A stretch of 51,851 nucleotides of DNA. Source: a virus (taxonomy: Duplodnaviria; Heunggongvirae; Uroviricota; Caudoviricetes). Location: positions 1 through 51,851 of IMG/VR virus record IMGVR_UViG_2923307698_000007; one strand, written 5' to 3'. Both the position numbers and the translations under genes were made by a program. A model generated the notes under the pieces. The model searched no databases, was not told where the DNA came from, and saw only the letters and a program-made list of their open reading frames with translations. Each line of letters starts with the position of its first letter. Position 1 is the stretch's first letter. This document shows positions 30,409 through 31,034 of the stretch, in pieces.

Positions 30409-30576
30409 TCAAGCATTATGCAGGCTGTTTCTTTTTATCACCGGCCACAGCAATACCACAATGCCGCAGACCAGCACCCCATCCGCCAGCACCGACATGA
30501 TTCTGCTGGTGAAATCCACCATCACCACCAGAAACAGCAGGAGTGCAGCCACAGCCAGGCGCAGTTTTACCGTCAC
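30409..30576 (-). CDS. Small hydrophobic membrane protein (about 55 aa), translationally coupled to TerB-like gene
   Basis: GTG start overlaps TerB-like TGA stop (GTGA); two predicted TM helices; under 60 aa so absent from ORF track. Confidence 0.35.
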   Translation of the reverse strand: MTVKLRLAVAALLLFLVVMVDFTSRIMSVLADGVLVCGIVVLLWPVIKRNSLHNA

Positions 30577-31034
30577 TGGTGATTCTCCAGACGAAGACCC
30601 AGAACACCGGCAATCTCTTCCAGCACCTTGCGCTCTTCCGGCTCAATTTCGCCGTCTGCCTCCGCAATGGCCACCGCCACATCCAGCACATCTTCCGCTT
30701 CACGCGTATCGTGTTTCACATCCTCGATCTCACGTAACGCCGCACGACGACCAATTTTAAAGTTCGTATCCAGCTGACCGATAATGGTTGCGCTCATCGC
30801 ATTAATTTCTGACGTAAACGCGGACAGCGCTGGCTGATTACGCAGTACCTGTTCGATCTTCGCTTTCTCGGAAGCCTCACATTCACCATCTGCACAGGCC
30901 ACCAGGTATGCGGCGTTAATCACCGCCTGTGCCAGATCGCGTTTTTCAAACTTTTTAATTTCCGTTGCCGCTCTGCGGGCTTTTTTTACCAAAAATACCA
31001 AACATCGTGACGTTCCTTTGGGTGGGTGAGCCAA
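30573..31034 (-). CDS. TerB-like (tellurite-resistance TerB domain) protein, possibly frameshifted at N-terminus
   Basis: Acidic helical TerB-like pattern (ACADGECEASEKAKI...AIAEADGEIEPEERKVLEEIAGVLGL); ORF-track start is TTG; an ATG-initiated MFGIFGKK frame (31003-31005) joins only via the A7 tract. Confidence 0.6.
   Translation of the reverse strand: MAHPPKGTSRCLVFLVKKARRAATEIKKFEKRDLAQAVINAAYLVACADGECEASEKAKIEQVLRNQPALSAFTSEINAMSATIIGQLDTNFKIGRRAALREIEDVKHDTREAEDVLDVAVAIAEADGEIEPEERKVLEEIAGVLGLRLENHQ

Follow-up and report, generated by a model that had tools for sequence, protein, structure and literature searches.

A close described relative of the locus reported here is the tciA-tciB-tciC group of phage P1, from which the gene names used below are taken: tciA encodes a TerB homologue, tciB a protein of the DUF3927 family and tciC a product of 35 amino acids (aa), and all three belong to the C1-controlled ban operon. 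The locus itself is a two-gene cassette, encoding a TerB-domain protein and a membrane protein of 55 aa, on the minus strand of a tailed-phage sequence from IMG/VR (record IMGVR_UViG_2923307698_000007, positions 1 to 51,851); this whole stretch of 51,851 nucleotides (nt) is referred to as the window. The P1 genes are transcribed during P1vir lytic infection, are non-essential in a CRISPR interference screen (PMC10695390), and have functions assigned by homology only; the operon counts among the hypervariable regions of P1-like phage-plasmids and has been lost from about half of the members of one subgroup (PMC9603915).

TerB is otherwise represented by the Klebsiella protein KP-TerB (PDB 2JXU) of the ter operon, terZABCDEF. 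There the membrane partner of TerB is TerC, in contrast to the DUF3927 partner found here. The defence systems Bunzi, Shango and Dionysus also contain TerB domains, and a role in membrane surveillance has been suggested for them; in papers on such systems TerB is described in summary as membrane-associated or amphitropic.

An initial annotation of the window had presented the cassette, by implication, as a noteworthy replacement for the Shiga toxin genes, stx, in a prophage otherwise laid out like an Stx-converting phage. We show, at the level of sequence, that the two genes are tciA and tciB. The cassette is thus not new: it is an ordinary and already named module, routinely annotated by the Prokaryotic Genome Annotation Pipeline (PGAP). 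Its position, its RNA elements and a lesion at the start of tciA are described below, and explanations of what the pair does are weighed.

Identification of tciA and tciB

The TerB-domain open reading frame (ORF; 30573-31034, minus strand) and the small membrane ORF that follows it lie where the initial annotation had placed them, and both match their Pfam families above cut-off. The former matches Pfam TerB (PF05099) at 56.1 bits against a cut-off of 24.4 (E 5.8e-15), over residues 36-148 of the 153-aa ORF, and belongs to PHROG 632, 'tellurite resistance' (E 4.8e-66). The start first proposed for it, TTG at 31034, is merely the first start codon after a stop. The protein aligns with 2JXU over nearly its full length (E 2.8e-8), and the two share a similar size, an all-helical fold and both acidic D-G-x(3-5)-E repeats, which in TciA read ACADGECEASEK and AEADGEIEPEER. 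Among 30 homologues three residues (A113, G117 and E123) never vary, and D38, G39 and D116 vary rarely or not at all. An AlphaFold2 (AF2) model built from 30 homologues has six helices (pLDDT 84.4, pTM 0.80), and its best Foldseek matches in the PDB are the TerB-like entries 2h5n (probability 1.0, TM-score 0.53-0.61) and 2ou3, at modest E-values (0.02). TciA is an acidic (pI ~5), cytoplasmic protein of the TerB fold. Partial matches were also obtained to DUF533 and DjlA, whose TerB-like domains are tethered by a transmembrane helix of their own.

The immediate neighbours of tciA are Q, a tRNA gene, the DUF3927 gene and a SASA esterase gene, and no gene of the ter operon other than the TerB homologue is adjacent; TciA therefore belongs to the TerB family without being part of a ter operon. 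Unlike terZABCDEF, the window genes are phage-borne, without other ter genes nearby, and the partner is a 55-aa DUF3927 hairpin. RefSeq, through PGAP, labels both the identical sequence in strain 14EC001 and the copy in EDL933 as 'tellurite resistance TerB family protein' and 'DUF3927 family protein', of which the 'tellurite resistance' name is a homology transfer. In deep comparisons tciA is under purifying selection, with a median ratio of nonsynonymous to synonymous substitution rates (dN/dS) of 0.06.

The small ORF (30409-30576, minus strand) matches Pfam DUF3927 (PF13064) at 62.3 bits against a cut-off of 25 (E 4.3e-17) and PHROG 1470, 'TciB-like' (E 4e-30). The two transmembrane helices predicted for it in the initial annotation agree with its hydropathy, which displays hydrophobic segments at about residues 5-21 and 28-47, with the conserved DFTSR between them and K or R residues at both ends; by the positive-inside rule TciB would form a hairpin with both termini in the cytoplasm. 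Ten of its residues are invariant (K4, R6, D21, F22, S24, S28, D32, G33, P45 and K48), and the conserved core of the family, DF(T/S)S...S-x-L-x-D-G, is present. DUF3927 is a small family: only 62 cluster representatives were matched among 1.84 billion proteins, nearly all of them about 50-60 aa long, and the few longer matches examined were artefacts.

The two genes are coupled, as had been claimed. The junction reads CAC CAG TGA, such that the tciB start (GTG, 30576-30574) and the tciA stop (TGA, 30575-30573) overlap in a GTGA at 30573-30576, and a GGAG motif stands 8 nt upstream of the GTG. In a scan of 18 species, described below, stop and start overlap or abut in all 14 intact pairs, in the forms GTGA, TAATG or TGATG, and the same holds in P1 and in phage Pollock. 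Like tciA, tciB is under purifying selection in deep comparisons (median dN/dS 0.22). Membership of a Pfam family, purifying selection and a junction that is kept together establish that the small ORF is a genuine conserved gene, as had been supposed. The pair is a mobile two-gene module.

Distribution of the module

Of 5,426 complete E. coli genomes, 839 (15%) contain the cassette according to a megablast search with it alone; the carriers have 6 copies at the median and 10 at most, nearly all of them on the chromosome. A wider pattern scan, using one genome per GTDB species, returned 18 loci from Pseudescherichia, Enterobacter, Franconibacter, Buttiauxella, Pantoea, Rosenbergiella, E. albertii and others. 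In 14 of these tciB is immediately preceded by an intact TerB ORF; of the remaining four, at least one (L109) still encodes a TerB C-terminus upstream of tciB, and the other three show no long ORF there. The upstream neighbour is a Q antiterminator, from any of three Pfam families, in 9 of the 15 neighbours scanned, while downstream neighbours in other genera are holins or lysozymes of several families. Beyond these, the virulent N4-like phage Pollock has the pair in its early region, and homologues of TciA are found in jumbo phages of Salmonella and Erwinia.

Phage P1 has both families in the same order with a stop/start overlap, flanked by phage tRNA genes, and its proteins are 41% (TciA) and 50% (TciB) identical to those of the window. 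The P1 pair stands in the C1-controlled ban operon without the conserved leader described below, whereas that of the window stands in a Q-dependent late operon behind this leader. No homologue of tciC was detected in the window by tblastn with P1 TciC (best E 0.86); a small RNA (sRNA) gene follows tciB instead.

These results leave little of the idea of a noteworthy replacement of stx: the pair is an ordinary occupant of its position, named already and present in 15% of complete E. coli genomes. The pair proves to be a common conserved component of stx-negative relatives, which is half of what the initial annotation had named as refuting its reading. Ordinary as a find, the pair has its value as a common module, often present in six or more copies per E. 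coli genome, shared with P1 and an N4-like phage, and with its TerB gene in jumbo phages.

Two arrangements at related loci may be recorded here. In the Salmonella jumbo phage pSal-SNUABM-04 (L200, 1861-2493) a TciA homologue with 74-77% identity precedes, by 3 nt, an ORF for a 60-aa membrane protein with two helices. This ORF has a TciB-like end, LVWPVIKK, but neither the DF..DG core nor a Pfam match; it may be a divergent or an analogous partner in place of TciB. In phage 434 the gene upstream of tciB encodes an unrelated 247-aa polytopic membrane protein without a Pfam match, and a 62-aa membrane ORF follows.

A slot shared with stx

The cassette lies within a lambdoid late region, which on the minus strand runs Q, tR', tRNA(CAU), cassette, SASA/DUF1737 esterase, S21-like holin, a YdfR/DUF1327 ORF, lysozyme and Rz. 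Its features are the following, all on the minus strand.

31643-32131, minus strand: late antiterminator Q (Q21 type); Pfam Phage_antitermQ, E 8.1e-25; PGAP 'antiterminator Q family protein'
31552-31599, minus strand: tR' late terminator; the same sequence is annotated as tR' in phage Nil2
31254-31329, minus strand: tRNA with anticodon CAU, ileX/ileZ-like; ARAGORN, Rfam tRNA 72.5 bits, PGAP tRNA-Ile
~31176-31250, minus strand: degenerate hybrid tRNA-Arg remnant; the 3' half corresponds to a tRNA-Arg in phages 2851 and Nil2, the 5' half differs
31006-31136, minus strand: tciA leader, conserved and apparently structured; cross-genus conservation, RNAalifold
30955-31005, minus strand: canonical tciA ATG (31005-31003) and its 16-codon frame, MFGIFGKKSPQSGNGN followed by a stop; read from the sequence
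30573-31001, minus strand: tciA, TerB fold, 142 aa from TTG 31001; Pfam TerB, PHROG 632, PDB 2JXU, AF2
30409-30576, minus strand: tciB, 55-aa DUF3927 protein, predicted two-helix membrane hairpin; Pfam DUF3927, PHROG 1470, hydropathy
30235-30401, minus strand: STnc100 (PasD-related) sRNA gene, directly downstream of tciB; Rfam RF02076, 101.1 bits
30181-30207, minus strand: intrinsic-terminator-like hairpin (8 bp, 7 of them GC) with a T8 run, the end of the cargo module ahead of the esterase gene; terminator scan
28244-30094, minus strand: nanS-p-like esterase, 616 aa (DUF1737, SASA and DUF6645), the right-hand constant flank of the slot; Pfam, PGAP
27745-27951, minus strand: S21-like holin
26812-27345, minus strand: lysozyme, with Rz further on

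Since tR' lies upstream of the cassette, the cassette falls within the Q-dependent late unit. The late-region order given in the initial annotation is correct, apart from its plural 'phage tRNAs': there is a single intact tRNA beside the hybrid remnant, on which neither ARAGORN nor Rfam made a call. The tRNA region is some 90 nt, or one tRNA, shorter than that of Nil2, which together with the hybrid remnant suggests a deletion between two tRNA-Arg genes. The two genes recognised in the slot are likewise real, although the STnc100 sRNA gene, the terminator, the conserved leader and a frameshift in an A7 run had been missed. With these elements the cargo forms a self-contained unit of leader, tciA, tciB, sRNA and terminator at the first cargo position of the Q-dependent late operon. 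A crude consensus scan found no sigma-70-like promoter between the tRNA and tciA. By eye, a -10-like CATAAT can be seen overlapping the last codons of tciB, which the promoter scan did not flag.

That this is the position of stx, as had been claimed, is evident from comparison with the Stx2c phage 2851. Window positions 31212-33000 (Q, phosphatase and ninG) are 99.4% identical to 2851. Shortly beyond the tRNA region, at about 31127, homology is lost, and 2851 carries stx2A-stx2B over the next 1.3 kb. Short matches resume at window positions 30269-30375, which lie downstream of tciB here and of stx2B in 2851, and the esterase aligns with the DUF1737/esterase region downstream of stx2 in that phage. 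The window indeed has neither stxA nor stxB, the best tblastn match to Stx2A or Stx2B having an E-value of 0.39. The stxAB modules of 2851, Nil2 and 933W occupy the same position, bounded on the left by Q, tR' and tRNAs and on the right by an STnc100-family element and a nanS-p esterase, but their cargo genes are unrelated to those of the window. The stx-negative lambdoid phage JLK-2012, from an E. coli O55:H7 strain, has the order Q, tRNAs, tciA, tciB, yjhS, S, R, Rz, its pair being annotated as tciA/tciB, and both it and the cryptic prophages of EDL933 are 93-97% identical in nucleotide sequence to the window cassette. The comparison with stx-positive (2851) and stx-negative (JLK-2012) relatives for which the initial annotation had called thus reveals one slot with exchangeable cargo between constant flanks: tRNAs on the left, and sRNA, terminator and esterase on the right.

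The sRNA gene matches the full-length RF02076 model at 101.1 bits, against a gathering threshold of 47. A copy of STnc100 has been found 75 nt downstream of stx2 in Stx2 phages (PMC12370729), and a preprint relates STnc100 to the PasD sRNAs of enteropathogenic E. coli (EPEC), which lie upstream of the sialate esterase gene (bioRxiv 10.64898/2026.05.13.724894). Of the cargo positions in these prophages, the slot common to tciAB and stx is the one most strongly induced, and an understanding of tciAB would throw light on the advantage that stx-negative relatives of Stx phages draw from it.

A conserved leader upstream of tciA

The leader (31136-31006, ~130 nt) extends from a tRNA-proximal hairpin and T-run to the tciA ATG. 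It is conserved across genera far above the level of synonymous sites (pS ~0.7), is common to both TciA subtypes in lambdoid prophages of many genera, and is absent from P1 and Pollock. Across scans of viral sequences, genomes and metagenomes tciA follows 106 of 108 unique leaders. RNAalifold gives a nested consensus fold in which CCUUU pairs with the Shine-Dalgarno sequence AAAGG; seven pairs have compensatory changes, and 97.9% of cells are paired, compared with at most 46% when the partners are slid. No shuffle reaches this covariation, which is indicative only, the sequences being related. For the window's own leader the single-sequence fold is only marginally better than its shuffles (z -1.95).

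A known riboswitch or sRNA was considered and rejected, the coding strand of the leader having no Rfam match at E-values up to 10. An 8-bp complementarity within the leader (CCACAGAG/CTCTGTGG, a/a') was also considered and set aside: it shows no compensation, and the few variants break a pair or turn it into a wobble. The leader contains a poly-G tract (~31080-31086, minus strand) of variable length, about G4-5 and T-interrupted in most loci, G7 in the window and up to G12 in one locus (L009). A T-to-G change in the window leader removes the usual GGGGTGAGC.

On its conservation and predicted fold the leader is a candidate cis-regulatory RNA that may hide the tciA ribosome-binding site. That it acts as an undescribed thermosensor, or as a switch responding to a ligand, protein or sRNA, which unmasks the Shine-Dalgarno sequence, is a suggestion to which we give rather little weight. 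Were it true, TciA and TciB would constitute a tightly gated membrane-acting phage module, among the most widespread uncharacterised accessory systems of enterobacterial phages, and the job of such a module could be counter-defence, exclusion or the control of lysis timing.

The start of tciA in the window

All 17 of the diverse homologues examined begin M(F/L)G..KK at an ATG with AGGA 8 nt upstream; the tciA of JLK-2012, for example, starts MFGIFGKK. In the window the codons that follow the corresponding ATG (31005-31003) include GGT AAA AAA AGC, with seven adenines (A7, 30981-30987), in place of the usual GGT AAA AAA GCC with six (A6). As a result the conserved ATG is out of frame and its reading stops after 16 codons. 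PGAP rescues the gene from TTG 31001, giving 142 aa with the N-terminus MVFLVKK, and as read from the sequence this TTG or rare slippage is the sole way into the TerB frame. JLK-2012 has the intact A6 form, whereas the window and the EDL933 copy examined have A7.

The lesion is common, with 47 A7 against 45 A6 alleles among IMG/VR loci, and the A7 alleles form essentially one clade, a large subclade of which has acquired a nonsense codon. Phase variation and programmed slippage were considered and rejected, A7 not being scattered among A6 alleles; confinement to one clade indicates an inherited lesion and not switching. Low-level +1 slippage or initiation at TTG may occur in A7 alleles. A full-length TerB frame survives in fourteen distinct A7 haplotypes, whose polymorphism still leans towards synonymous change (ratio 0.16-0.21); tciB is intact in nearly all loci. 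The tciA of the window is best described as a hypomorph, translated at best from TTG 31001, or as an early pseudogene, beside an intact tciB. Together, the conserved leader and the A6/A7 start-codon polymorphism offer two handles for experimental work on tciA/tciB.

Function of the pair

Every context in which the pair was found is a lytic-phase unit, be it downstream of tR' and Q in lambdoid phages, under the C1 operator in P1 or in the early region of an N4-like phage, and some of the phages concerned do not lysogenise; for these reasons we favour an inner-membrane accessory that benefits the phage. Presence in virulent phages and a position downstream of tR' argue against a simple benefit to the lysogen. 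In the mechanism we propose, TciA and TciB would be produced together during lytic development by Q-driven read-through of tR', the translation of tciA being gated by a leader structure in which the Shine-Dalgarno sequence of the gene is paired. TciB would insert in the inner membrane, its two ends in the cytoplasm and its conserved Asp residues in or near the bilayer, and TciA would act together with it at the cytoplasmic face. The two could then serve as a non-essential accessory which, up to programmed lysis, monitors or stabilises the infected cell's membrane and ion state, perhaps as a guard against pore-forming colicins, superinfecting phage or abortive-infection pores, and would so provide with two genes a counterpart of what the ter operon shows in its colicin and phage phenotypes. 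Identity and lytic-phase inner-membrane explanation taken whole, we put the chance of this account being right at somewhat less than even.

Several observations weigh against this account. Our searches found no experimental study of TciA or TciB function and returned only annotations and statements of homology. The timing of expression differs, being early in P1 and the N4-like phage and late in lambdoids. A tight TciA-TciB complex meets counter-evidence on three sides: co-evolution of the two proteins was not upheld (Mantel r 0.17, p 0.09), TciB being common to both TciA subtypes; TerB-DUF3927 fusions (P0130, P0172, P0191 and P0238), considered as evidence of interaction, are frameshift or chimeric products; and phage 434 carries tciB without tciA in the same slot (L293, 1612-2844). 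Among close copies from E. coli and IMG/VR, tciB has 28 nonsynonymous and 7 synonymous polymorphisms, a ratio of ~1.5 that looks neutral; the excess could reflect relaxed or diversifying selection in the multi-copy prophages of enterohaemorrhagic E. coli (EHEC) and EPEC, or mosaic C-terminal tails. The TerB frame has a premature stop in 31 of the 47 A7 loci, and the module may be decaying in this lineage, the window's tciA being without its conserved start. Finally, sRNAs of the STnc100/PasD type are abundant in uninduced cultures, so that some transcription of the region in lysogens is possible.

A serious rival is prophage defence or superinfection exclusion, in which TciA would be a membrane-surveillance sensor of the TerB type and TciB a small membrane effector, both expressed from the prophage so as to block incoming phages, in the way of Bunzi, Shango and Dionysus or of the Phi phenotype of the ter operon. 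TerB domains are part of validated defence systems with a proposed role in membrane surveillance (Bunzi, Shango and Dionysus), and in these systems, as in the window pair, a TerB-like domain goes together with membrane components. Terminators bracket the cassette in the manner of an autonomous moron; it reaches 6-10 copies in prophage-rich EHEC and EPEC genomes, and has its P1 counterpart in a region that is hypervariable among P1-like elements. However, the partner genes of Bunzi, Shango and Dionysus differ (a helicase/ATPase, a pore-forming toxin, a MAEBL protein) and those systems reside in host defence islands, as opposed to phage lytic operons. PADLOC-DB, which includes Bunzi and Shango, gave no membership of a known defence system, with nothing beyond a weak partial match of TciA to the candidate PDC-S48 (E 0.003, 14.7 bits) and none for TciB. 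No sigma-70-like promoter was seen between tRNA and tciA. Behind tR', or behind the C1 operator in P1, the genes should be silent in lysogens, and neither the virulent N4-like phage with the pair nor the jumbo phages with the TerB gene suit a prophage role. Defence thus fits the genomic context less well than the phage-benefit accessory, and we consider it unlikely. The existence of TerB-containing defences allows the converse, that TciA might be a TerB mimic acting as a counter-defence decoy against host TerB modules (the ter Phi function, Bunzi, Shango, Dionysus), directed to the membrane by TciB. Occurrence in unrelated lytic and temperate groups and expression in lytic programmes would suit this, but the argument is purely analogical and its chances seem slight indeed.

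Two further explanations concern the host and the lineage. Under lysogenic conversion the pair would confer tellurite, oxidative-stress or colicin resistance, a notion encouraged by homology to the TerB of the ter operon, by the PGAP and PHROG names and by enrichment of the cassette in pathogenic E. coli lineages. Yet TerB is one of several ter-operon genes, the others of which are not adjacent here; the cassette sits in a late, repressed transcription unit; virulent phages that carry the pair never form lysogens; and the names are homology transfers only. Host tellurite resistance is probably not the selected function, and conversion as a whole strikes us as very improbable. A little less improbable, and still quite doubtful, is that the protein genes are decaying passengers in this lineage, tciA being an incipient pseudogene, and that the RNA content (the STnc100/PasD-type sRNA and the tRNA) is what is maintained. 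A7 removes the conserved start and belongs to one clade with a large nonsense-bearing subclade, tciB polymorphism is about neutral among close copies (28:7), 6-10 copies per genome permit redundancy, and phage 434 has kept tciB and the sRNA region and lost tciA. Set against these are the 14 A7 haplotypes that retain the full-length TerB frame with synonymous bias, the intactness of tciB in nearly all loci, and the TTG itself, which lies 4 nt after the ATG and uses the same Shine-Dalgarno sequence.

Other features of the window

A low-GC island (29-39% GC) lies inside the prophage at window positions 34000-36500. It contains, on the opposite strand to the cassette, a 590-aa ORF (34509-36281, plus strand) that has no Pfam match and is a hypothetical protein in PGAP, preceded by a hexanucleotide repeat, (AAATAG) x 10.8, at 34128-34192. 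A Lambda cIII thermoregulator element is found at 44256-44314 on the plus strand (Rfam RF01804, 88.5 bits), as expected in a lambdoid early-left region.

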